The notes under the pieces were generated by a model. It was not told the origin of the DNA. It made no database searches and saw nothing but the letters and a program-made list of their open reading frames with translations. From the NCBI RefSeq assembly GCF_030013595.1, contig NZ_CP122768.1: a DNA stretch of 64,000 bases. One strand, 5' to 3'. Below, piece after piece: positions 8,877 through 64,000 of the stretch. Origin of the DNA: Escherichia coli (lineage in GTDB: Bacteria > Pseudomonadota > Gammaproteobacteria > Enterobacterales > Enterobacteriaceae). Position 1 is the first letter of the stretch. The number at the start of each line of letters is the position of its first letter. The translations under genes were made by a program, and so were the position numbers.

Positions 8877-8974
8877 GCCGGATGCGGCGTGAACGCCTTA
8901 TCCGGCCTACAAAAATCTTGCCAATTCAATATATTGCAGGACCACGTAGGCCTGATAAGCGTAGCGCATCAGGC
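8877..8974. repeat. BIME: two inverted REP elements flanking a short spacer
   Basis: gccggatgcggcgtgaacgccttatccggcctac ... gtaggcctgataagcgtagcgcatcaggc; classic REP consensus in opposite orientations between fepA and entD. Confidence 0.7.
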
Positions 8975-11101: not shown

Positions 11102-11254
11102 CTACTTCTTCGGTTCGTAAGCGAGAACAGCCTTAAACTCAATATTACGTTCCTTCACCGTAAACTCACACAGCGAGTCTCCGACCAGAAGCGTAAATCC
11201 CAGTACCGTCAAACACAGCACTATGACTGCCACAAGGGCATATTTCGTCAGCAT
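11102..11254 (-). CDS. hokE: Hok-family small membrane toxin (type I toxin-antitoxin)
   Basis: 50-aa product [50 protein letters not shown] embedded in a longer leader ORF (mok-like, 11102..11398). IS186 lies 21 bp downstream. Confidence 0.85.
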
Positions 11255-11680
11255 GTTTATATTGCCTCCATGCGAAGAAGGGACTACCATCCAAATTGTC
11301 TGGTTTGGAGTGGCAGCCCCAGGGTTGATAGAAATATCTCCTGGGGCTTCATCTTTCCAGACCTCAGAGTAAACCTGAAACCGGAAAGCTTCAGGCACCC
11401 GCCGTTATCTTACCCTTCCTCAGCAAAATAGCTGTTTATTTATACAGTGAGTCCTGTTTCGGACTTCTCACTCCTCATTTGATCAACTGAAGCTGAACCC
11501 GTTTTTTTCTGCATGCCTCAATCGTCAAAATTCTTCGCCACCAGCCAGCTCTGCCATAACTTGTCACATTGCAGAAGTAGCCAAACTTCTTCAGTCACAA
11601 TCAGTTCACCATCACCAAAAAAAGAAACATTCCAGAACTTCCGCATCTCGCCCAGTCGCTCCCACTTCTATACTGAATAG

Positions 11681-34468: not shown

Positions 34469-35953
34469 ATGCGAAAAATAATTACTCATTTCAAAGTTGT
34501 TTTAACGTTACTTCTACCAGTAACCGTATCTGCCCAGCAGATACAGTGGCAATCCTGTATGGCCAGTCAATTCAACCACTGGTTTGGTGAGGAAAAACCG
34601 TCTCCTGACTTACTATGTGGTTATTTGTCTGTTCCATTAAAATATACAGACACAGGCGGAGATGCTTCTTATGAAAAAAAATCACAAGTCAAACTAGCGT
34701 TGACAAAATTGCCGGCAAAAAGCAAGCATAAAGGAAGTATCCTGATAATAAGTGGTGGTCCCGGGTTACCAGGCATAAATCCTTATATTAACTTTGACTG
34801 GCCAGTCACAAATCTTCGTGAGTCATGGGATATTATTGGATTTGATCCTCGAGGCGTCGGACAGTCCACTCCGACAATAAACTGCCGGCAATCAGATACA
34901 GAGACTCAGGAAAACATAACCGAAAAGCAACAAGTATTAAATAAAATTAATGCCTGTATCCATAATACCGGAGCCGAAGTCATTCGCCATATCGGCTCTA
35001 ACGAGGCTGTATACGATATTGATCGTATTAGGCAAGCCTTGGGGGATAAACAACTGACAGCCGTGGCGTATTCGTATGGAACTCAAATTGCAGCCTTATA
35101 TGCAGAACGTTTTCCCTACAACGTAAGATCTATCGTTCTTGATGGAGTCGTCGATATCGATGACCTGGAGGACAACTTCACATGGCAACTCAAACAGGCA
35201 CAGAGTTATCAGGAAACGTTTGATCGCTTTGCATCCTGGTGTGCGCGTACAAAAAGTTGCCCGCTTTCTTCAGACAGAGATAAGGCAATAACTCACTTCC
35301 ATGAGCTATTATCAAAATTACATCACAAACCTTTATTAGACAGTAAGGGAGAAAATATATCTTCAGGTGAACTCATATCATTAACAACAGACCTTCTGCT
35401 ATGGCGTTCATCATGGCCAACCCTTGCAACTGCCATACGCCAGTTCTCTCAGGGGATTGTCAGTAATGAAATTGAAACTGCGCTCAGTGCTCCGATAGCC
35501 TCAGAAGAGTCAAGCGATGCTTCGGGGGTAATCCTCTGTGTAGATCAGGGGGATGAGCAATTAACACCAGAAGAGCGAAAATCCCGAAAAGACGCTCTTG
35601 CGAATGCCTTCCCGGCTATTAACTTTGACAATGGACGTTCCGATTCACCTGATTTTTGTGAATTATGGCCAATACATAGCGACCTGAACAAAACTCGCCT
35701 GAAAAATACTGTTCTGCCCTCTGGTTTACTGTTTGTAGCACACAAATACGACCCAACAACGCCCTGGATTAATGCCCGTAAGATGGCAGAGAAATTTTCC
35801 AGCCCGTTACTAACAATAAATGGTGATGGGCATACATTAGCTCTCACCGGAGTTAATTTATGTGTAGATAAAGCAGTTGTACATCACCTGATCACTCCAC
35901 AAAAAATAGAAAATATATACTGCCCAGGAAATTCTGAAGCAGAAATACAATAA
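34469..35953 (+). CDS. Secreted alpha/beta-hydrolase, S33 (tripeptidyl-aminopeptidase-like) family; prophage cargo
   Basis: 494-aa ORF with N-terminal signal peptide (MRKIITHFKVVLTLLLPVTVSA), nucleophile elbow AYSYGT, AT-rich codon usage. Family call is from motifs only. Confidence 0.6.
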   Translation: MRKIITHFKVVLTLLLPVTVSAQQIQWQSCMASQFNHWFGEEKPSPDLLCGYLSVPLKYTDTGGDASYEKKSQVKLALTKLPAKSKHKGSILIISGGPGLPGINPYINFDWPVTNLRESWDIIGFDPRGVGQSTPTINCRQSDTETQENITEKQQVLNKINACIHNTGAEVIRHIGSNEAVYDIDRIRQALGDKQLTAVAYSYGTQIAALYAERFPYNVRSIVLDGVVDIDDLEDNFTWQLKQAQSYQETFDRFASWCARTKSCPLSSDRDKAITHFHELLSKLHHKPLLDSKGENISSGELISLTTDLLLWRSSWPTLATAIRQFSQGIVSNEIETALSAPIASEESSDASGVILCVDQGDEQLTPEERKSRKDALANAFPAINFDNGRSDSPDFCELWPIHSDLNKTRLKNTVLPSGLLFVAHKYDPTTPWINARKMAEKFSSPLLTINGDGHTLALTGVNLCVDKAVVHHLITPQKIENIYCPGNSEAEIQ

Positions 35954-36498: not shown

Positions 36499-37167
36499 AT
36501 GGTGAAATTAATGAAAAAAAACACAGATGATGGGGCTAAAATTTACACACCACTTACCCTAAAGCTTTATGACTGGTGGGTTTTGGGAGTATCAAATCGG
36601 CTTGCATGGGGATGTCCTACAAAGGAACACCTTCTTCCACACTTTCTGGAACATTTAGGTAACAACCATCTGGATATTGGTGTTGGAACTGGGTTTTACC
36701 TTACTCACGTACCTGAGAGTAGTCTGATATCTTTAATGGATTTGAACGAAGCTAGCCTGAACGCGGCATCTACAAGGGCTGGGGAATCAAAAATTAAACA
36801 TAAAATTAGCCATGATGTTTTTGAACCTTATCCCGCGGCGTTACATGGTCAATTTGATTCCATTTCCATGTTTTACCTTCTTCACTGCCTGCCTGGAAAT
36901 ATATCTACAAAAAGCTGTGTAATACGCAATGCGGCGCAGGCCTTAACTGACGATGGAACTCTATACGGAGCCACAATTCTTGGCGATGGAGTTGTGCACA
37001 ATAGCTTCGGTCAAAAACTGATGCGCATTTACAATCAGAAAGGCATCTTTTCAAACACAAAAGATTCCGAAGAAGGCTTAACACATATACTCTCAGAGCA
37101 TTTCGAGAATGTTAAAACCAAGGTTCAAGGTACTGTAGTAATGTTTTCCGCTTCAGGGAAAAAATAG
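36499..37167 (+). CDS. ybcY: Class I SAM-dependent methyltransferase (YbcY-like prophage cargo)
   Basis: 222-aa ORF with motif DIGVGTGF (SAM-binding motif I); encoded opposite to the flanking tail-fibre genes; start codon uncertain. Confidence 0.65.
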   Translation: MVKLMKKNTDDGAKIYTPLTLKLYDWWVLGVSNRLAWGCPTKEHLLPHFLEHLGNNHLDIGVGTGFYLTHVPESSLISLMDLNEASLNAASTRAGESKIKHKISHDVFEPYPAALHGQFDSISMFYLLHCLPGNISTKSCVIRNAAQALTDDGTLYGATILGDGVVHNSFGQKLMRIYNQKGIFSNTKDSEEGLTHILSEHFENVKTKVQGTVVMFSASGKK

Positions 37168-37221: not shown

Positions 37222-37806
37222 TTACTCCCTGACAGGGTTCGTAGGCCACTCAATATCAGGTGCAGTTGATGTATCAACACGGTTCAGCAACACCCGATAC
37301 TTTTTCCAGGCTTCCAGCAACGAGGTTTCTCCCTCCGTTGCGATTTCCAGATCTGCAGCATCCTGAAGTGGCGCAATATGCTCACTGGCTACCTGCATCA
37401 GGCTGTTTTTTGTTTCTTCCGCCTCCCGGATCCGGAACAGTTTTTCTGCTTCTGCATCTTTCACCCAGGTTGTGCCGTTCCACTTCTGAAACTCCCCTTC
37501 CGGGGATAACCAGGTGACATTTTCCGGTAATGAGCCGAGTTCAGAAATAAATAACGCGTCGCCGGAAGCCACGTCATAGACGGTTTTACCCCGATGGTCT
37601 TCAACGAGATGCCACGATGCCTCATCACTGTTGAAAACAGCCACAAAGCCAGCCGGAATATCTGGCGGTGCAATATCGGTACTGTTTGCTGGCAGACCTG
37701 TATGAGGCGGAATATATGCGTCACCTTCACCAATAAATTCATTAGTTCCGGCCAGCAGATTATAAATTTTTATGGTCCGTGGTTGTTCACTCATTCTGAA
37801 TGCCAT
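37222..37806 (-). CDS. tfa: Tail fibre assembly protein (lambda Tfa-like)
   Basis: 194-aa [42 protein letters not shown]... with C-terminal conserved block; start overlaps stf stop. Confidence 0.9.
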
Positions 37807-40800
37807 TATGCAAGCCTCACAATATAGTTAAATGCGATGTTTTTGACGGTGTTTTCCGCGTTACCAGCAGCGTTAACGGTGATGGTGTGTCCATGTGAGC
37901 CAATCGCAACCGAGTGCGTATGAGCACCAATACCGACAGTATGTGCGTGTGCACCTGCGCTTGCAGCAGTGCCGGACAGTGAGTGGGTATGTGCGCCAGC
38001 AGATGATGTTGCATAGTTTTGATTATGCACAACAGACAATCTTGTTGATGCACTACCAGCACCGGAGTTAGCACTAGCCGTGTTCACGTTGGCTAGTGAG
38101 TGTGTGTGTGCTCCAGCCGAGTTTGTAGAGCCGCTCACACTGTGTGTATGTGCCCCGGTGTTATTCGTAGATTTAGTGCCGTAATCAAACGACGATGTGG
38201 TTTTCGTACCCAAATCCGTACTTGATGCGCTGGCGCTGTGGGTGTGCGATTTAATGCCGTCCTGTTCCTGAGACAATACGGCACGACCACTGGCGGGCTT
38301 GCCCTTAATCGTCCAGCCACGCATATCAGGGATCACGCCTGACGGATAAGCAACTGCAAGTTTCGGGTATGCAGATTTGTCAAAAGTCTGCCCCTGCATC
38401 AGGGCATAACCAGACGGAACGGTATCTGATGGCCACGGAATTGGTGCGCCAACTGGGTAGCTTTCTGGTGGAAGATTTTTCGAGGTATAAACTTCTGCCC
38501 AGCCTTCCTCAAAACCATAGCCATCTCTTGAGGAACGGTAGAACAGACCTCCATTTCTGTAATGCGCCTTCATCTGCAGGGTCCGGCAACTTCCGACTCC
38601 GGTATAGAAGTTAACCAGAATATAGCTGTCGCCAGAGCGGGTGACATTGTAAGCGCCTGATTCGGCATTCCAGGGAACGCCACCATCCGCATCGGCATAT
38701 GTATCCGTTGCCCTTCTGGCAAAAGCAGCCACATGCGCGGCGGTTAAAGTAATATCTTTTGAACCATCAAACTCAACCCCAGAAACCAGTCTTGGCGTTT
38801 GCAGCTTTGTTGCTGTCAATGCGTTACCGTTCAGACTTGCAGACAGTTTGGTTCCAATAACCAGTTCGCCGGTTGCGTTATCAATAGCAAACGGTCTTAA
38901 TGTATTCCAGCCACCATAAACATCACCTTGATTGGTAAGCAGCAGGTAAGTTTTAGCGCCATCATTACGCCATAATGCCCCATACTCCCCACCTATCATT
39001 CGAATCTGATTACCACCACGCGCTACAATTTCGTCTGTGGCAAAAAGTTTTTTGCACGACAAGTTATCGTTAACGATTAACGAATGGGACTCATAAAAAC
39101 CACGCCCACTCTTAAAATCAAGGATAACGTCCGCCGCGATACATTCAGTCGCTGGAATTGTTGCCCCAAACTTATAGGTCGTATCATTAACAACGAGATC
39201 AGCACCAGGTGCGGATATTGACAGGCCATCTTCGATAAACGCAAAAACAGGGAAAGCAGCGCCATCAACATAGAACACAGAGCGCAAATCATCGCCCTTA
39301 TTACTCATCATTATTGAGTGGATGGCTCGTTCATTGTTTTGATATTGCCAGAACATTCCATAAGCATAACGCCCCCTGTCAGTCCAGCCACCAGGCATAA
39401 CAAATCCGTTAAACTCGCAGTTATTCATCGGATCGCCTGCGGTTCGCGTTGCCGTGGTGATAATGACCCTTGATGCCAGTTCGCTTACTGAGCCAGCAGA
39501 ACGCATAACAACAACAGGGTAATATTTTCCAGATGTTGCACCTGCAGGAGCGTTAACCCGCACATAACGCATACCACGCTTATCAGCAAAGTCTGTTTTA
39601 CTGACCGCGTTAATGTTGTTCAGGAAGCGTCCCTTATCGGGTATATCAGCGCCGTTCTGGTCTTTCTGCAGACGTTTCTCTGCATTGTCATAGGCTGATT
39701 TTACTGACTTTGGCGTTGCCGCCAGCGTTTCAGACGTACTGTTGGTCGCACTGCTGAGCTGTACTATCCCCTTTTTCGTCGTACTTGCATCCTCAAGCGC
39801 CACGGCGGATGCAATATCCTCTGCCCGTTTAGCTGCTGTCTCGGCGCGCGTTGCCGCGGATTCCGCCGTACTTTTGCTCTGTGCTGCCGCTGTCGCACTG
39901 CCAGCAGCCTCTGTCGCCTTCGTGGATGCCGTCGTGGCGCTGCCCTTCGCTGCTGACGCCTGTCTGGTCGCCTCATCTTTTGAAGCAGACGCAGATGATG
40001 CCGATGACGCCGCCGAACTGGCGGACGATGCCGCTGCCGTTTTTGAGGATTCTGCGCTGGTTTCCGACGCTTTCGCGTTCGTTTCGGATGTCTTCGCTGC
40101 GGATGCAGACCTCGCTGCTGCGCTGGCCTGTTCAGCGGCTTCGCCAGCCTTCGTTGTGGCTGTTGAAGCGGACAATGCAGCGCTTTCTGCCGATTTTCCG
40201 GCGGCGGTGGCACTGGCTGAGGCCTGCCCGGCACTTGTTGACGCTGCACTGGCAGACGACGCAGCCGCTGTTTTTGAGCCTGCCGCAGCTGAGGCGCTCT
40301 GTCCCGCTGCCGTTTCAGAAGACCTGGCGTTCGTCTCGGACGTTTTTGCCGCCTTCGCGGAATTTCCTGCCGCCGTTGCCGAGGAAGCTGCACTACTGGC
40401 GCTCGAGGCTGCGCTCGTTTCTGATGATTTTGCAGCCTCTTTTGAGGCCGCCGCATCCCGGGCCGAGGTCGCAGCTTCTGATGCCTTCGTGGTCGCGGTG
40501 GATGCAGATGTGGCTGCTGATTGTTGTGACGCTGAAGCATTCGTTTCTGACGTTTTCGCCGCACCGGCACTGGTGGCCGCCGCGCTTTTTGAGGACTCTG
40601 CAGCGGCAGCACTTTTTGATGCTTCAGTGGCCTTTGTTGATGCCGTTCCTGCGCTGGAAGACGCTGACTGAGCCGACGAAGCGGCCTGTCCGGCTGACGT
40701 GCTGGCTGCGCGTGCTGAGCCTGCAGCATCAGTCGCATGGGTTGCCGCCTCACGGGCAGATGTGCCGGCATCGCCGGCTGACTTCTTCGCGGCTGCCGTG

Positions 40801-41168
40801 TTCTGTGCCACCACGGACGCGTTACGCGCCACCTCTTCCACCATCAGCTCAAAACGGCGCAGTGCCTCCGGACGGGCATCATCCTCCGTCATGGCACCGA
40901 GAAAATCATTCAGCGTACCGGGTCGGGAATCTTCATACACTGTGATAGTCCCGGCATGTGACGGCGGGAATCCTTCCACCAACAGAATAACGCTGTACTG
41001 ACCGTACTCAACGTCCATACTGTAACGCCCGGCTTCATCCGGATTTTCTGAGGCCAGCGTGTTCACCACCACCGTGGTGCTGTTACGTTTTGCTTTCAGC
41101 TGGATTGTGCAGTTCTGTACCGGTTTTCCTGTGCCGTCTTTCAGTACACCTGAAATCTTTACTGCCAT
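37806..41168 (-). CDS. stf: Side tail fibre protein (lambda Stf-like), with long Ala/Ser-rich region and C-terminal HxH repeats
   Basis: ORF 37806..41174; begins (MNM)[31 protein letters not shown]...; about 480 aa of A/S/T-rich low complexity; C-terminus has repeated GAHTHS motifs. Confidence 0.9.
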
Positions 41169-41232
41169 ATTCACCCCACAAAAAAGCCCGCCTGAACCGG
41201 CGGGCTGTCATAACACTGTGTTACCTGGCTAA

Positions 41233-41832
41233 TCAGAATTTATAACCGACACCCACGATGAACCCGTCAGTGCGCCAGTCACCGCTGCCGGAGCCTTCAT
41301 AAGCGACGTCAACGGCCACGGATTCGGTCGGGTTAAACTGCACGCCAGCTCCCCACGCCAGAGACGTGTTGCTGTGGCGACCGTCATCACTTCCGGTCAG
41401 CACATCGTGCGTTTTCCCCTTGTTGTCAGTTACGCGGATATAATCTCCGGAGAAAGTCGACACACGGCTGTAAGCCATACCCGCCATCGCATACGCGCTG
41501 AACCATTCATTCACGCGCACAGACGGCCCCGCCATCACGCTGAACCAGCGGTTACGCACGGAATCTTCATGCCAGCGGGTATCGCTGTAATGCGTTTTTT
41601 GCTCATCTTCAGCGTTGGTATAACTGAATGACGTAATCAGCCCCAGCGTGTCCGTAAACTCATAACGGTATTTCACGTTAATCCCGTTCAGATTATCGCT
41701 GCCGGGAGCGTTCGTACGGGCATGAAGATACCCTGCGCTCAGTGTGGCCTGCTGCTCAGACGCCCATGCAGGCGCACCGGATACGGCCAGACAGATGGCT
41801 GCGGACAAAATGGCTGCACAAACTTTACGCAT
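41233..41832 (-). CDS. lom: Lom outer-membrane protein (Ail/Lom family; prophage moron)
   Basis: 199-aa ORF with signal peptide MRKVCAAILSAAICLAVSGAPAWA and beta-barrel-like C-terminus ending GYKF. Confidence 0.9.
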   Translation of the reverse strand: MRKVCAAILSAAICLAVSGAPAWASEQQATLSAGYLHARTNAPGSDNLNGINVKYRYEFTDTLGLITSFSYTNAEDEQKTHYSDTRWHEDSVRNRWFSVMAGPSVRVNEWFSAYAMAGMAYSRVSTFSGDYIRVTDNKGKTHDVLTGSDDGRHSNTSLAWGAGVQFNPTESVAVDVAYEGSGSGDWRTDGFIVGVGYKF

Positions 41833-41899
41833 AATTACCTCTCGCTTTTCTGCAATAAAAAAGGCGCCATTTCTGGCGCCCGTATATGGGTTATAAAAT

Positions 41900-44800
41900 T
41901 CAGCTGATACTGATGCCTGCGGTGGCTTTCTTCATCACCACAACCAGCAAATCGCTGATACTTGCTGTGGGATACCAGTTATTTACCAGCCATGCTGACA
42001 CCGAAAACTCCAGTGTCATGTGACCGTGACCGGCAGGCATATCAATAACACCACTGTAAATCAGCGTATTATCCAGCGCGGTACGGTTATAAATTTCAGC
42101 ACCGTTTTTCCGTACTATCAGACGGCATGAGGAGTAAATATCAGTATGCTCTTTCTCATGTTTAGCGCCGCTGAATGCCACCGCCGGAATAACAATCTGC
42201 CGGTCAAACGGCTGATCGTCATAAACCCTGACGGTGATGGTCCCTGATGGCCACCGTTCCGGTGCACGGGAGTCCCGGGGGAAAGCTTTGCCCACTGTTT
42301 TAACGAGATCGCCTTCAATCTGGTTCGCGGACAGTTTTCCCAGAACCCGACAGTTCTCGTTAATCGTGACGTTGTTGAGCGTCCCGGAGTTCGCATTCAC
42401 GTTACCGCTGATATCGGCATTTTTCGCCGTCAGCCGCCCGTCCGGTGTCAGGGAAAATGCCGGTGGATTTCCGCCGCTGGTAATGGTGGGAGCCGTCAGG
42501 CGTTTCAGGAACACGTCGTTCATGAATATCTGATCGCCCTGACCAACAAACATCGGCTTTGTGTTGCCATTCGCAGGATTAATCATCGCAATCCGGTCAG
42601 CAGCCAGAAGCACCTGACTCTGCATACCTGCTGGCGTATTCTCAATACCGGCTCCGATACCCGCAATATAAAGGCGTCCGTCCTTCATCTGCTGCAGTTT
42701 CACGGCCCACATGCTGTTCAGGTTATTATTTGTATCAACCTGAACTTTCTGTATCTGCTGGATTGCCGCGCTCTGATTTTCCAGTTTCTTATTGACGGTC
42801 TGTGTGATTTCATTGCTGACATCCGTAATGGACGTCCTGATTTCAGCCAGGTCAGGCGCAAGCTGATCGTTATCAATCTGCGTCCACAGCTCCTGAGCCA
42901 GATGGGTTTTCCCTATCTCGCCTTTGAAAAAATCCAGATAGCCGGATGCGTCATCACTCGGCTGACCGACAGCCTCCACGAATGCCGATTTGCCAACAGT
43001 GTTCACACTGCGAACGTAAAAATAATAATCATGGCCCGGCTTAATATTGATACTGGCAGCTATCCAGTACAGCGCCGTACCAAGATAGCGCGCTGTGGTT
43101 TCAACCTGCCTGATATCCGCAATCCGCTTTTCCGAGAACCAGAACTCAAACTGTACCGTCGGATCATAAACGGCAAGATGCGGCGTGGCGGTTATCTGAA
43201 AATAGCCCGGCGTCAGCTCAATCCGCGACGGTGCTGCCGGTGCGGCAATCCGGAACGATACCGATGCCGGATCGCCCTGCTGTCCCCACGCATTTACCGC
43301 CCGGACTGTCAGCCTGTAGTTCCCCAGCGCCAGCTGCCTGAAGCGGTATGTGGTTTCCGTCGTCCGGGCCGTGCTGACCAGCCGCTCACTGCCGTCATCG
43401 GCGGCCACGGTCAGGCGAAGCATAAAGCTCACACCCTTCACCACCTTCGGCGTGTCCCAGCGCGCCAGCACCTGATACTCCCCACTGTCTGCGGTGACTT
43501 CTGCGGTCAGGTGCTGCACCGCTGGCGGCGTGACACCATTCACCGTGCCGCTCTGGTCGCCGTCAAAGTGCGCCCCGTTATCCACGATGGCTTCTTTCTC
43601 CGGTACATGCTGCACGGCAGTGATGGCATACGTGCCGTCATCGTTCTCACGGATACTCACACAGCGGAACAGGCGCTGGCGCAACGTCGGCAGCTTCAGC
43701 CCCCACACGCTGTATTCTGCAACGCCGTCAGGAACACGGCTCACTTTCACCTTCACACCGTCGGTGACGGACTGAACCTCCACGCTGACCGGATTGCCAC
43801 TTCCGTCAACCAGGCTTATCAGCGTGGTACCGGAGGATGGCAGCGTGATTTCACGGTCGAGCGTCAGCGTCCGGGTCTGGCTGTTCACCGCCAGCACGCG
43901 CCCGCCGGTGCTGATACCGGCATAGTCATCATCGCAGATTTCAATGACATCGCCCGGCACATGGCGAAGCCCTTCTGCGCCCACGCTGAAATCCACGGTC
44001 TGCGTTTCCAGCAGTTCCGTTTTAATCAGCCACAGCCCGGCGCGGTGTGCCTGCCCCCGGCTGGTACAGCCAAAGGCATCCATCTTCGTAACATTACGAC
44101 CGTAACGGGCAATGGCCTGCGTATCTTCAACAAGCTCTGTCGCCGTCTCCCAGCCGTTATCCGGGTCAATCCAGTTCACCTCAACGGCATTATGGCGGTC
44201 CTTCAGGGCGCTGAAGCTGTAGCGGAACGGCGCGCCATCATCCGGCATCACCACATTACTGCGGTTATAGGTCCACACCTTATCCGACGGTCGGTCCTGC
44301 ACGAACGTCAGCGTCTGCCCGTTCCATACCGGCATACAGCGCATCGCCGAGCAGAAATCGCTGAGCACATCCCACGCCTTACGTTGTGTGGTCAGCCAGG
44401 CATTACAGGTGATGCGCGGCTCCGTGCCGCCAAAACCGTCCGGCACCGACTGGTCGCAGTACTGGCCGATGACATACAGCGCCCATTTATCCACATCTGC
44501 CGCACCAAGACGTTTCCCCATGCCGTAGCGCGGATGGGTCAGCATATCCCACAGACACCAGGCCATGTTGTTGCTGTATGCTGGCTTAAACGTTCCATCC
44601 CAGATACCGCTGTATTGCCGCGTCTGCGGGTTATAGTTCGACGGCACCTGCAGAATGCGCCCGCGCAGATGATAATTACGGCTCACCTGCTGGCTGCCGA
44701 ACTGCTCCGAGTCCACCTGCACGCCGACCAGTGCCGTGTTCGGGTAGCACTGTTTCACATCTATAATTTCGGTGTATGACGACCAGAGCGTTTTGTTCTG

Positions 44801-45379
44801 CAGCTGGTCTGTGGTGCTGTCCGGCGTCATCCTGCGCATCCGGATACTGAACGGGCGCGGCGGCAGGTTATCCACCACCACCGAGGCCAGATACTGCGAG
44901 GTGGTTTTGCCCTTAATGGTGATGTCTTTTTCCGTCACCCAGCCACCGTTACGTTGTATCTGAACCAGCAGGCGGACTTCCGATGGATTCCTGTCACCCT
45001 TTGAGGTGGTTTCCACCAGTGCCTGCACACCGAAGGTAAAGCGCAGTCGGTCGATGTTTGCCGACGTGATGGCGCGGGTGATCGGCGTGTCGTATTTCAC
45101 TTCCGTACCCAGCACCGTCTCGGAGCCGGAGGATTCAAATCCCTCCGGCGGAGTCTGCTCCTGCTCACCAGCCCGGAACACCACCGTGACACCGGCGATG
45201 TTGGTATTCCCCTCACTGTCCAGCACCGGCGTACTGTTCAGCAGCACGCTTTTTAATCCATCCACCGGACCTTCAATCGGCCCTTCACTGATGGCATCAA
45301 TCACACTCAGCAACTGCGTGGATTTCAGGTTGTCCTTCGCTTCGCGCGGGGTATGCCCCTTACTGCTGCCTTTACCCAT
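41900..45379 (-). CDS. J: Tail tip / host-specificity protein J (central tail fibre)
   Basis: 1159-aa [50 protein letters not shown]... Confidence 0.95.
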
Positions 45380-47784: not shown

Positions 47785-50342
47785 CGTCCACCTCCGGAGA
47801 ACAGTCCACCATCACGCATCTGTGTCTGAATTTCATCACGGGCACCCTTGCGGGCCATGTCATACACCGCCTTCAGAGCAGCCGGACCTATCTGCCCGTT
47901 CGTGCCGTCGTTGTTAATCACCACATGGTTATTCTGCTCAAACGTCCCGGACGCCTGCGACCGGCTGTCAGCCAGACTGCCCGGTGTACCGACATAACCA
48001 CCGGTGGCATAGCCGCGCATCAGCCGGTAGAGATTCCCCACGCCAATCCGGCTGGTTGCCTCCTTTGTGAAGACAAATTCACCACGGTGAACAATCCCCG
48101 CTGGCTCATATTTGCCGCCGGTTCCCGTAAATCCTCCGGTTGCAAAATGGAATTTCGCCGCAGCGGCCTGAATGGCTGTACCGCCTGACGCGGATGCGCC
48201 GCCACCAACAGCCCCGCCAATAGCGCTGCCGATACTCCCGACAATCCCCACCATTGCCTGCTTAAGCAGAATTTCTGTCATCATGGACAGCACGGAACGG
48301 GTGAAGCTGCGCCAGTTCTGCTCACTGCCGGTCAGCATCGCCGCCATATTCTGTGCAATACCATCAAAGGTCTGCGTGGCTGCACTTTTTACCTGCGACA
48401 TACTGTCCGTGGCGCTCTCTTCCCACTCACTCCAGCCGGACTTCAGGCCTGCCATCCAGCTCCCGCGAAGCTGGTCTTCAGCCGCCCAGGTCTTTTTCTG
48501 CTCTGACATGACGTTATTCAGCGCCAGCGGATTATCGCCATACTGTTCCTTCAGGCGCTGTTCCGTGGCTTCCCGTTCTGCCTGCCGGTCAGTCAGCCCC
48601 CGGCTTTTCGCATCAATGGCGGCCCGTTTTGCCCGTTGCTGCTGTGCGAATTTATCCGCCTGCTGCGCCAGCGCGTTCAGGCGCTCCTGATACGTAACCT
48701 TGTCGCCAAGTGCAGCCAGCTGGAGTTTGTACTCCAGCGTCTCATCTTTATGCGCCAGCAGGGATTTCTCCTGTGCAGACAGCTGGCGACGTTGCGCCGC
48801 CTCCTCCAGTACCGCGAACTGACTCTCCGCCTTCCACAAATCCCGGCGCTGCTGGCTGATTTTCTCATTTGCTCCGGCATGCTTCTCCAGCGTCCGGAGT
48901 TCAGCCTGAAGCGTCAGCAGGGCAGCATGAGCACTGTCTTCCTGACGATCGCCCGCAGACACCTTCACGCCGGACTGTTTCGGCTTTTTCAGCGTCGCTT
49001 CATAGTCCTTTTTCGCCGCCGCCATCAGCGTGTTGTAATCTGCCTGCAGAATTTTCCCGTCCTTCAGTGCCTTGTTCAGTTCTTCCTGACGGGCGGTATA
49101 TTTCTCCAGCGGCGTCTGCAGCCGTTCGTAAGCTTTCTGCGCCTCTTCGGTATATTTCAGCCGTGACGCTTCAGTATCGCTCTGCTGCTGCGCATTTTTG
49201 TCCTGTTGACTCTGCTGTTCAGCCTTCTTTCTCGCGGCTTCAAGCGCAAGACGGGCCTTTTCACGATCATCCCAGTAACGCGCCCGCGCTTCATCGTTAA
49301 CAAAATAATCATCCTTGCGCAGACTCCAGATGTCGTCCGCTTTCTTAAACGCAGCCTCTGCCTTAATCAGCATCTCCTGAGCGGTATCAGGACGACCAAT
49401 ATCCAGCACCGCATCCCACATGGATTTGAATGCCCGCGCTGTCCTGTCTGCCCAGGTCTCCAGCGTACCCATGTTCTCTTTCAGGCGGCGGGTCTGGTCA
49501 TCAAACCCTTTCGTCGCGGCCTCGTTCGCCGCCTGCAATGCCCCGGCTTCATCGCCGGAACGCTGCAACTGAGCAACATACGCAATCTGCTCCGCCGTCA
49601 CGTTATGGAACTGGCGTGCCATCGCTGTCAGCCCTGACGTCGGGTCTGTGGTCAGCTTCCCGAAGGCTTCAGCGACCTTGTCCACCTCCACGCCGGATGC
49701 AGAGGAGAAACGCGCCACACTCTGGCTGATGGATGCAATCTGAGCCTCACCGCTTACTCCCGCCTTAACCAGTGCGCTGAGTGACTCGCTGGTCTGGTTA
49801 AACGTCAGCCCTGCCGCCTGCCCGGCTCTGGACAGGACCAGCATACGATCTGCCGTCAGACCCGACTGATTGCCGGAAAGGACCAGCGTTTTGTTGAAAT
49901 CGGACAGGGTTGAGTTGCCCTGATACCAGGCATACGCCAGCGCACCGGTCGCCACCGCCAGCGAGGTGGCCCCGACCATCGGCAGGGTGATCGCACCGGC
50001 AAGCCCCCTGAACATGGGGATCATCCCGCCGAAGGAGTCCTTCACCTGACCACCCTGTTGCAGCAGGATCAGCCACGGACTTTGCCCGCCTGCAAGCTGC
50101 GTGGCCACGTCGGTGAACTGCGCAGGCAGCATACGCATGGCAGCTTTATACTGCCCGACGGAAATCCCCGCTTTCTGTGCAGCCAGCGCCTGTCGGCTCA
50201 GCGACTGTTCAACGACTGCCGCTGTTTTTTTCGCATCACTTTCCGTACCGGAAAAATGACGCCTGACTCTGGCCATCTGCTCGTCAAATCTGGCCGCATC
50301 CAGACTTAAATCAACGACCAGATCGCCTACCGGTTCAGCCAT
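47781..50342 (-). CDS. H: Tail tape measure protein H
   Basis: 853-aa ORF MAEPVGDLVVDLSLDAARFDEQMARVRRHFSG...; long coiled-coil-like central region. Confidence 0.95.
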   Translation of the reverse strand: MAEPVGDLVVDLSLDAARFDEQMARVRRHFSGTESDAKKTAAVVEQSLSRQALAAQKAGISVGQYKAAMRMLPAQFTDVATQLAGGQSPWLILLQQGGQVKDSFGGMIPMFRGLAGAITLPMVGATSLAVATGALAYAWYQGNSTLSDFNKTLVLSGNQSGLTADRMLVLSRAGQAAGLTFNQTSESLSALVKAGVSGEAQIASISQSVARFSSASGVEVDKVAEAFGKLTTDPTSGLTAMARQFHNVTAEQIAYVAQLQRSGDEAGALQAANEAATKGFDDQTRRLKENMGTLETWADRTARAFKSMWDAVLDIGRPDTAQEMLIKAEAAFKKADDIWSLRKDDYFVNDEARARYWDDREKARLALEAARKKAEQQSQQDKNAQQQSDTEASRLKYTEEAQKAYERLQTPLEKYTARQEELNKALKDGKILQADYNTLMAAAKKDYEATLKKPKQSGVKVSAGDRQEDSAHAALLTLQAELRTLEKHAGANEKISQQRRDLWKAESQFAVLEEAAQRRQLSAQEKSLLAHKDETLEYKLQLAALGDKVTYQERLNALAQQADKFAQQQRAKRAAIDAKSRGLTDRQAEREATEQRLKEQYGDNPLALNNVMSEQKKTWAAEDQLRGSWMAGLKSGWSEWEESATDSMSQVKSAATQTFDGIAQNMAAMLTGSEQNWRSFTRSVLSMMTEILLKQAMVGIVGSIGSAIGGAVGGGASASGGTAIQAAAAKFHFATGGFTGTGGKYEPAGIVHRGEFVFTKEATSRIGVGNLYRLMRGYATGGYVGTPGSLADSRSQASGTFEQNNHVVINNDGTNGQIGPAALKAVYDMARKGARDEIQTQMRDGGLFSGGGR

Positions 50343-56463: not shown

Positions 56464-60144
<3,681 letters not shown>

Positions 60145-60170
<26 letters not shown>

Positions 60171-60690
60171 TCAGCAACCCCGGTATCAGTTCATCCAGCG
60201 CGGCTGCTTTGTTCATGGCTTTGATGATATCCCGTTTCAGGAAATCAACATGTCGGTTTTCCAGTTCCGGAAAACGCCGCTGCACCGACAGGGGGATCCC
60301 GTCGAGAATACTGGCAATTTCACCTGCGATCCGCGACAGCACGAAAGTACAGAATGCGGTTTCCACCACTTCAGCGGAGTCTCTGGCATTCTTCAGTTCC
60401 TGTGCGTCGGCCTGCGCACGCGTAAGTCGATGGCGTTCGTACTCAATAGTCCCTGGCTGGAGATCTGTCTCGCTGGCCTGCCGCAGTTCTTCAACTTCCC
60501 GGCGCAGCTTTTCGTTCTCAATTTCAGCATCCCTTTCGGCATACCATTTTATAACGGCGGCAGAGTCATAAAGCACCTCATTACCCTTGCCACCGCCTCG
60601 CAGAACGGGCATTCCCTGTTCCTGCCAGTTCTGAATGGTACGGATACTCGCACCGAAAATGTCAGCCAGCTGCTTTTTGTTGACTTCCAT
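60145..60690 (-). CDS. Nu1: Terminase small subunit Nu1
   Basis: 181-aa ORF MEVNKKQLADIFGASIRTIQNWQEQGMPVLRGGGKGNEVLYDSAAVIKWYAERD... with N-terminal HTH; overlaps A start. Confidence 0.95.
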
Positions 60691-60855
60691 TGTTCATTCC
60701 ACGGACAAAAACAGAGAAAGGAAACGACAAAGGCCAAAAAGCCCGTTTTCAGCACCTGTCGTTTCCTTTCTTTTCAGGGGGTATTTTAAATAAAAACATT
60801 AAGTTACGACGAAGAAGAACGGAAACACCTTAAACCGGAAAATTTTCATAAATAG

Positions 60856-60896
60856 CGAAAACCCGCGAGGTCGCCGCCCCGTAACCTGTCGGATCG
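60856..60896 (-). other. cos site (cosN with adjacent cosB side toward Nu1)
   Basis: Plus strand gcgaaaacccgcgaggtcgccgccccgtaacctgtcggatc is the reverse complement of the lambda cohesive-end region; aggtcgccgccc (60868-60879) corresponds to the 12-nt cohesive end GGGCGGCGACCT. Confidence 0.85.
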
Positions 60897-61078
60897 CCGG
60901 AAAGGACCCGCAAAATGATAATAATTATCATCTACATGTCACAACGTGCATCTACGCCATCAAACCACGTCAAATAATCAATTATGACGCAGGTATCGTA
61001 TTAATTGATCCGCATCAACTTAACGTAAAAACAACTTCAGACAATACAAATCAGCGACACTGAATACGGGGCAACCTC

Positions 61079-63911: not shown

Positions 63912-64000
63912 TATTCACCTCTCGCAGCCTTGCGCTTATCTTCTTTAATCTTGAAATAAAGGTTTGTCAGGTACGTCAGCAGGCCAAATACCAGGCTACC
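63911..64000 (-). CDS. S: Holin (phage 21 S-type pinholin), C-terminal part only; 5' end outside window
   Basis: Minus-strand frame reads ...[29 protein letters not shown] then TAA, which overlaps the R start codon by one base. Confidence 0.7.

Follow-up and report, generated by a model that had tools for sequence, protein, structure and literature searches.

The window analysed here, a stretch of 64,000 nt from Escherichia coli, begins with chromosomal DNA (bases 1 to ~33,000) that carries an entF-like NRPS gene, a hok/sok locus, a group of cus-sized ORFs, ybcH and envY. The cus-sized ORFs probably represent the cus operon, judging from their size and the gene order of K-12. From ompT on, the gene order is that of the K-12 cryptic prophage DLP12, namely ompT, a methyltransferase gene, tfa and stf, leading to nohD, cos, ylcI, ybcW, ybcV, bor, rzpD, rrrD and essD. 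The part of the prophage that is visible in the window consists of a holin gene fragment, R, Rz, bor, ybcV, ybcW, ylcI, cos, the genes from Nu1 to J, lom, stf and tfa. From R through lom there are 26 genes besides A, all full length and free of stops, while the window ends within the holin gene.

Several smaller features accompany these genes. The interval from ompT to the tail-fibre assembly gene holds an alpha/beta-hydrolase gene (34469-35953, plus strand; 494 aa) and an intact SAM-methyltransferase gene (36499-37167, plus strand; 222 aa). Because K-12 DLP12 has appY, tfaX and the pseudogene ybcY where the window has the hydrolase and the methyltransferase, the cargo differs at this end of the prophage. 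Above the gathering score, Rfam models matched IS009 inside the tail-fibre assembly gene (37265-37463, minus strand), the sok antitoxin RNA of the hok/sok locus (11246-11400, minus strand) and the sRNA ES036 (8912-8953, plus strand).

The cos site is found in the joined arrangement of a prophage, between a block made up of R, Rz, bor, ybcV, ybcW and ylcI and another made up of Nu1, A, W and B. On the minus strand, positions 60856-60896 read CGATCCGACAGGTTACG, GGGCGGCGACCT and CGCGGGTTTTCG in succession, which corresponds to lambda bp 48486-48502 (the right virion end) followed by bp 1-24 (the left end). In the alignment with lambda (NC_001416), through which lambda coordinates were transferred to the window, 40 of these 41 positions match, and the sole mismatch (lambda T48486 to C) is located at the final base, 60896. 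This segment spans just cosN and its immediate flanks, not the complete cos; a complete lambda-type cos of ~200 bp, from cosQ to R1, occupies 60714-60909 (Table 1).

Table 1. The cos subsites, the terminase genes and the visible prophage in the window, with the corresponding lambda positions
Feature	Window position	Strand	Lambda bp	Remarks
Lambda-like prophage, visible half	37222-64000	-		Continues past the window end; includes holin fragment and cos
A, terminase large subunit	58245-60170	-		641 codons with one in-frame TAG; collinear with lambda A
Nu1 (nohD), terminase small subunit	60145-60690	-		181 aa, intact; Pfam Phage_Nu1, E = 3.9e-101
R1	60714-60729	-	152-167	Accessory TerS binding site; 16 bp TGTCGTTTCCTTTCTC, identical to lambda
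R2	60757-60772	+	108-123	TerS binding site, opposite in orientation to R3 and R1; 16 bp TGTCGTTTCCTTTCTT, identical to lambda
I1	60789-60806	-	74-91	Predicted IHF binding/bending site between R3 and R2; identical to lambda
R3	60815-60830	-	50-65	Critical TerS (Nu1) binding site; reads AGGTGTTTCCGTTCTT, C53T relative to lambda
I2	60830-60862	-	18-50	AT-rich spacer between cosN and cosB; 100% identical to lambda
cosN cohesive end	60868-60879	-	1-12	GGGCGGCGACCT; 12/12 identical to lambda
cosQ	60903-60909	-	48473-48479	Heptamer GGGTCCT, packaging-termination signal; identical to lambda

When both strands of the window were scanned, the 12-nt cohesive end was found as a single exact copy, and by our calculation ~0.008 exact copies of a 12-mer are expected by chance in 128 kb of sequence. 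With two mismatches allowed, four further sites appear in the window, and the resulting five are within expectation (6.15). A 38-nt pattern composed of cosQ and cosN gave one match with no mismatch in the window and none in 100 shuffles. A chance match was rejected as the origin of cos on these grounds, the single exact 12-mer and the absence of the composite pattern from all 100 shuffles; the feature is real and is a matter of homology, not of chance. Neither the 12-mer scan nor the composite scan detected a second cos in the window.

The subsites were compared with lambda one by one. For cosQ, we take lambda bp 48473-48479 to be the extent, presumably as assigned by Wieczorek and Feiss (2001). 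Lambda bp 48472-48485 are entirely identical in the window, and GGGTCCT followed by TTCCGG is equally far from the nick in the window, lambda, N15 and phi80. The nicks in cosN, with positions predicted from lambda-type cosN, would lie between 60880 and 60879 on the top strand and between 60868 and 60867 on the bottom strand. By definition, cosN includes 2 symmetric bp on each side of the nicks (PMC9026076). The identity to lambda over bp 48487-48502 and 1-52 covers the symmetric bases flanking the nicks and all of I2. It is I2 that sets the critical spacing between cosN and cosB and is needed for packaging, and its extent has been defined by Feiss and colleagues (PMC4856287). As I2 is 100% identical to that of lambda, the spacing from cosN to R3 is unchanged.

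On the cosB side, R3 comprises bp 50-65, of which Nu1 contacts bp 55-63, with bp 56, 58 and 59 being functional (Murialdo and Feiss, PMC9026076). The C53T change falls outside this contact segment, which was delimited by NMR and genetics, and it is common to phage 2H10, K-12 DLP12 and two other prophages. The extent of I1 was set by our own consensus match rather than by a paper: a scan for the IHF consensus WATCAANNNNTTR gave two overlapping matches, at lambda 74-86 and 79-91, both being the same in lambda and the window, and the closest change, A73G, lies 1 bp outside. The R-site motif CGTTTCCKTTCT occurs exactly three times around cos, at 60816-60827 (minus strand), 60760-60771 (plus strand) and 60715-60726 (minus strand), and four times in the whole window, where 0.48 matches are expected. 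The sites R3 (minus), I1, R2 (plus) and R1 (minus) follow one another in the order and orientation found in lambda, and also in its spacing save for an R2-R1 spacer that is 1 bp shorter.

In that spacer, lambda NC_001416 has an extra base (GAGGC) at bp 137-139, opposite window positions 60743-60745. Since the shorter form is carried by DE3, 2H10, the PhiR phages, K-12 DLP12 and the window, it is the common state. This difference and the R1-flanking C151T are found in DE3, 2H10 or both.

Lambda 48446-182, a segment of 238 bp that carries cosQ, cosN and cosB, has been used experimentally as a complete cos (PMC4856287). Over lambda bp 48446-190, the window and lambda differ at 11-12 positions, counting substitutions and indels, and none of these lies in cosQ, cosN, I2, bp 55-63 of R3, R2 or R1. 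The change at lambda 48471 is to the base of phi80, and that at 48486 is to the base of both phi80 and N15. Over the same interval, no difference separates the window from Escherichia phage 2H10 (LR595862; 100% identity), and the cos of the window is also identical in the prophages of strains QEC11-421 and 2015C-3121. 2H10, the ICTV species exemplar of Glaedevirus, is 99.4% identical to the window over 501 bp; its name is absent from the text of Mathieu et al. 2020 (PMC6969025), although the record name fits the naming scheme of that paper. The phages PhiR26_1, PhiR63_1 and Turner show 5-6 differences from the window over cos. 2H10 and the ECOR-derived, lambda-like PhiR phages are represented by phage genome records in which the terminase genes are annotated as intact, whereas the window holds a chromosomal prophage with a broken A. 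The departures from lambda include C53T at the edge of R3, A73G beside I1, the shorter R2-R1 spacer and an amber codon at position 443 of gpA, and the insertion site differs as well, lambda being integrated at its attB (gal-bio) and the window prophage probably at the argU/DLP12 locus.

By every sequence criterion that could be tested, this cos is an intact site of lambda specificity, and it is probably functional, as judged from its identity to the cos of presumably functional phages. The original prediction of an intact cos adjoining Nu1 is therefore borne out, all subsites being in place and the Nu1 start codon (ATG at 60690, lambda bp 191) being 189 bp from the cohesive end. It had also been stated that the cohesive end and both flanks are present in prophage configuration, and this agrees with the alignment, in which all 12 bases of the end and lambda 48487-52 are identical and the ends are joined. 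The alignment to lambda cos that had been suggested as a check revealed no mutation in the 12-nt end and no loss of the R sites on the Nu1 side, and the packaging signals that were expected to be intact, cosQ, cosN, I2 and R3-I1-R2-R1, are all recognizable in the sequence and identical to those of 2H10.

The protein that would recognize this site is likewise close to that of lambda. Nu1 differs from its lambda counterpart by A75T and L132I only, with residues 1-74 identical, and is 100% identical to nohD of QEC11-421. The recognition helix and the wing have been mapped to residues 17-24 and 31-39, respectively (PMC9026076). As both substitutions lie outside the DNA-binding domain, these two elements, which set packaging specificity, are identical to those of lambda.

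The stop that had been noted in the large terminase gene is confirmed as an in-frame TAG that replaces the lambda GAG at codon 443 of A (E443*; window 58842-58844, minus strand). Three other amino acid differences, D185E, D320Y and I459V, separate gpA from that of lambda, leaving 99.4% identity apart from the stop; the residues in question are present in intact A genes of relatives and are not private. Measured on the Pfam GpA_nuclease profile, the TAG falls between positions 124 and 141 and so divides the domain in two. In lambda, the C-terminal part of gpA docks on the portal (PMC9026076). A truncated gpA would be deprived of half of the nuclease domain and of the portal-binding C-terminus, and because of the stop at codon 443 the prophage alone cannot cut cos or fill heads. 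Across 5,426 complete E. coli genomes, a 61-mer carrying the TAG had no exact match, and in 3,089 of them the best match to the 61 nt around the TAG is off by exactly one base (98.4%). The stop is private to this genome, and since the rest of the late operon is intact, this single point mutation suggests either a very recent inactivation or a sequencing error.

With respect to its position, the prophage belongs to the DLP12 family. The host flank on the tail-fibre side comprises ompT, envY, ybcH and nfrA, and the genes from rrrD to ylcI, cos and nohD follow in the family order. K-12 DLP12 shares this neighbourhood (ompT, envY, ybcH, nfrA) as well as the order rrrD, rzpD, bor, ybcV, ybcW, ylcI, cos and nohD, and its cos, which has the exact 12-nt end, differs from that of the window at 7 of ~247 positions. 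DLP12 of K-12 is cut off just past nohD, with aaaD, a fragment of A, fused to tfaD, whereas the window prophage keeps all of its head and tail genes. On the evidence of gene order and flank, the latter appears to be a full-length relative of K-12 DLP12 at the DLP12 (argU to ompT) locus. The argU prophage of strain 2015C-3121 occupies the same locus, with 99.4% identity over the first 13.5 kb and a matching gene order and host flank. It starts at tRNA-Arg/intD; A is intact, the tail gene T carries an IS3, and a replication gene is frameshifted. Given that the lesions in the window and in 2015C-3121 are different, one prophage lineage is decaying independently in different strains. By analogy with that strain, further defects are possible beyond base 64000, on the side of int, xis, the repressor and O/P.

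At the host-range end, J and lom (41236-45379), which are accompanied by stf at 37806-41174, share ~90% amino acid identity with the QEC11-421 prophage versus 99-100% for the head genes, which indicates that this end of the prophage is mosaic.

Taken together, the best explanation, to which we assign a probability of roughly 0.85, is that of a lambda-like prophage cos at the DLP12 locus, with its cis-acting parts and Nu1 intact and with gpA stopped at codon 443. The accompanying mechanism is taken over from the lambda paradigm. The joining of the virion ends in the prophage would allow late transcription to run from the lysis genes across cos into Nu1, A and the head and tail genes. Once positioned, gpA would introduce two nicks 12 bp apart in cosN, and terminase would remain on the cosB end, dock on the portal and pump DNA in the direction from Nu1 to J. 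The next cos would then halt packaging, for which cosQ and cosN would be required there. For lambda itself, it is established that cosB and cosN start packaging and that cosQ and cosN of the next cos end it (PMC4669245, PMC9026076). The lesion in gpA might be repaired in four ways, that is, by gpA supplied in trans from a phage of lambda specificity, by an amber suppressor, by reversion, or by recombination with a homologous A. In addition, packaging of the element itself would need excision and concatemer formation through its own early functions.

It had been proposed that a helper phage supplying terminase could package this element. The idea is sound in principle, being equivalent to helper packaging or to the classical complementation in trans of a mutant with an amber codon in A, but it does not extend to the single cos in situ, and the helper would have to be of lambda or N15 specificity. 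A suitable helper has lambda (or N15) packaging specificity and not that of 21, and the helper/passive-prophage assay of Feiss uses two tandem prophages as the substrate (PMC4669245). Without proper termination, packaging fails (PMC4856287). In the packaging direction, toward lower coordinates, the 12-mer and composite scans found no co-oriented cosQ-cosN within 60.8 kb downstream of cos, a distance exceeding one lambda headful, and an unexcised copy therefore cannot give a proper particle. Because lambda-type packaging runs from cos to cos and there is a single cos here, the element must first excise and replicate to concatemers; helper rescue is plausible only after these steps. From the 2015C-3121 relative, the size of the whole element is estimated at roughly 45 kb. 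Such a length is within the packaging limits of lambda.

Other readings of the site and of its lesion have to be weighed against this one. That cos is a degenerate, non-functional relic, in view of its 11-12 differences from lambda such as C53T and the shorter R2-R1 spacer, is extremely improbable. The position in question, C53, is conserved in R3, R2 and R1 of lambda according to our own alignment of the three sites; however, 2H10 carries every one of the differences, most of them recur in PhiR phages whose recorded host is E. coli C, MG1655 or ECOR13, the 1-bp spacer difference is found even in lambda DE3, and no difference touches bp 55-63, cosN, cosQ, I2, R2 or R1. Doubt could instead be directed at the TAG, which may be a sequencing or assembly error or be suppressed in the host, in which case the prophage would be fully packaging-competent and cos its working site. 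A single base change that is unique among 5,426 genomes would fit an error of this kind, as would the intactness of all other late genes and the sharing of the remaining gpA substitutions with intact relatives. Nevertheless, we regard it as unlikely: the window bears no sign of error, prophage genes often carry private nonsense mutations, and decay has proceeded independently in the same-locus relative. No prophage-borne suppressor tRNA that could read the TAG is encoded in the window, which is devoid of tRNA genes. In any case, that TerL alone in the late operon is knocked out, by the single GAG to TAG change, is only a mildly unusual point and deserves little weight unless the TAG is real.

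The remaining alternatives concern what the site is for. A prophage that is also dead elsewhere, in which cos matters just as a terminase target of infecting or co-resident lambda-like phages, the break leading to recombination and marker exchange, is possible but doubtful. Such a role is documented for cos of K-12 DLP12, where 10 of 19 lambda x DLP12 junctions adjoin cos (PMC3945230), and it gains from the frameshifted replication gene and the IS3 in T of the same-locus relative and from the median of two copies in genomes that have a lambda-type cos; against it, the visible 27 kb, which are 99.4% identical to relatives and have a single lesion, argue for a young, largely intact prophage. It is compatible with the best explanation, not exclusive of it. 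In K-12, lambda finds its largest homology in the cos region of DLP12, which is also a hotspot for recombination with the phage (PMC3945230, PMC545071), and cos-stimulated recombination with infecting lambda-like phages is likely to be a second consequence of the site. Far less can be said for helper terminase cutting cos in situ and packaging through the tail genes into ompT, envY, nfrAB and the cus operon, a specialised or lateral-type transduction that we hold to be very improbable. The packaging direction from Nu1 to J does face the host flank, by our calculation a headful of lambda length starting at 60879 would reach ~12,400 in the window, and 'doc' particles, derived from unexcised prophages, have been described for lambda. 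Termination, however, would fail for want of the downstream cosQ-cosN, the absence of cosQ leaves packaging unterminated and is lethal for the particle (PMC4856287), and packaging of a passive prophage takes two tandem cos sites (PMC4669245). A bolder proposal, in which the private TerL amber has made the prophage at the DLP12 site helper-dependent, so that it spreads only via gpA of co-resident lambda-type prophages, or in which cos cut in situ mobilises ompT-cus, is a long shot. Were the helper-dependence true, an element that keeps cos, TerS and all structural genes would represent a natural first step from phage to satellite. The chance that the element already is a PICI-like satellite, carrying cos to hijack a helper terminase, is practically negligible. 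Gram-negative PICIs such as EcCICFT073 do share with it a lambda-like cosQ and cosN and the dependence on helper TerL, a working TerL being absent here, but they have no R3, R2 or R1, Rpp instead of Nu1 and no structural genes, and the window prophage is the opposite on all of these counts; the lack of a lambda-type cosB in PICIs and the replacement of TerS by Rpp are described in PMC9026076 and PMC6739421. The identity as a PICI was rejected on the lambda-type R sites, Nu1 and the full set of head and tail genes in the window.

A cos of this kind is widespread. With a 237-bp query and matches counted at a coverage of at least 80%, a lambda-type cos was detected in 3,969 of the 5,426 complete E. 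coli genomes (about three quarters), with a median of 2 copies and a maximum of 8, identity to the query being 99% or higher in 161 records. The 4-kb cos-terminase block was found in 4,830 genomes, and its best matches among the complete E. coli genomes, 99.7% identical, are at another insertion site. E. coli C was chosen as an indicator since it is without cosN-lambda, unlike strains with defective lambda-like prophage DNA (Feiss and colleagues, PMC4669245). The cos in the window is an unremarkable example of a class that has been thoroughly characterised, and its biology is already known. Among the matches listed in the E. coli survey, no annotated feature lies under cos, and Table 1 supplies subsite coordinates for annotating a site that genome pipelines leave unannotated. 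Beyond annotation, the significance is small and consists in a complete lambda-specificity packaging signal combined with one visible lesion. The element is thus a ready partner for complementation by, and cos-stimulated recombination with, lambda-like phages, both of which are already documented for K-12 DLP12 and lambda amber mutants.

Two minor observations concern the cos region and its relatives. Rfam, promoter and terminator scans around cos returned nothing relevant. A sigma-70-like promoter match (10/12) is present at 60915-60944 (minus strand), directly upstream of cosQ and pointing to Nu1; four such matches were counted in the cos region against 2.2 expected, which is near chance, and the one at 60915-60944 is probably meaningless. 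In phage PhiR70_1 (PV340577), the cohesive end is the variant GGGCGGAGACCT, with C to A at bp 7, while the remainder of cos is 99% identical to that of the window; the change, in the left half of the end, reflects either natural polymorphism of cosN or a faulty assembly.
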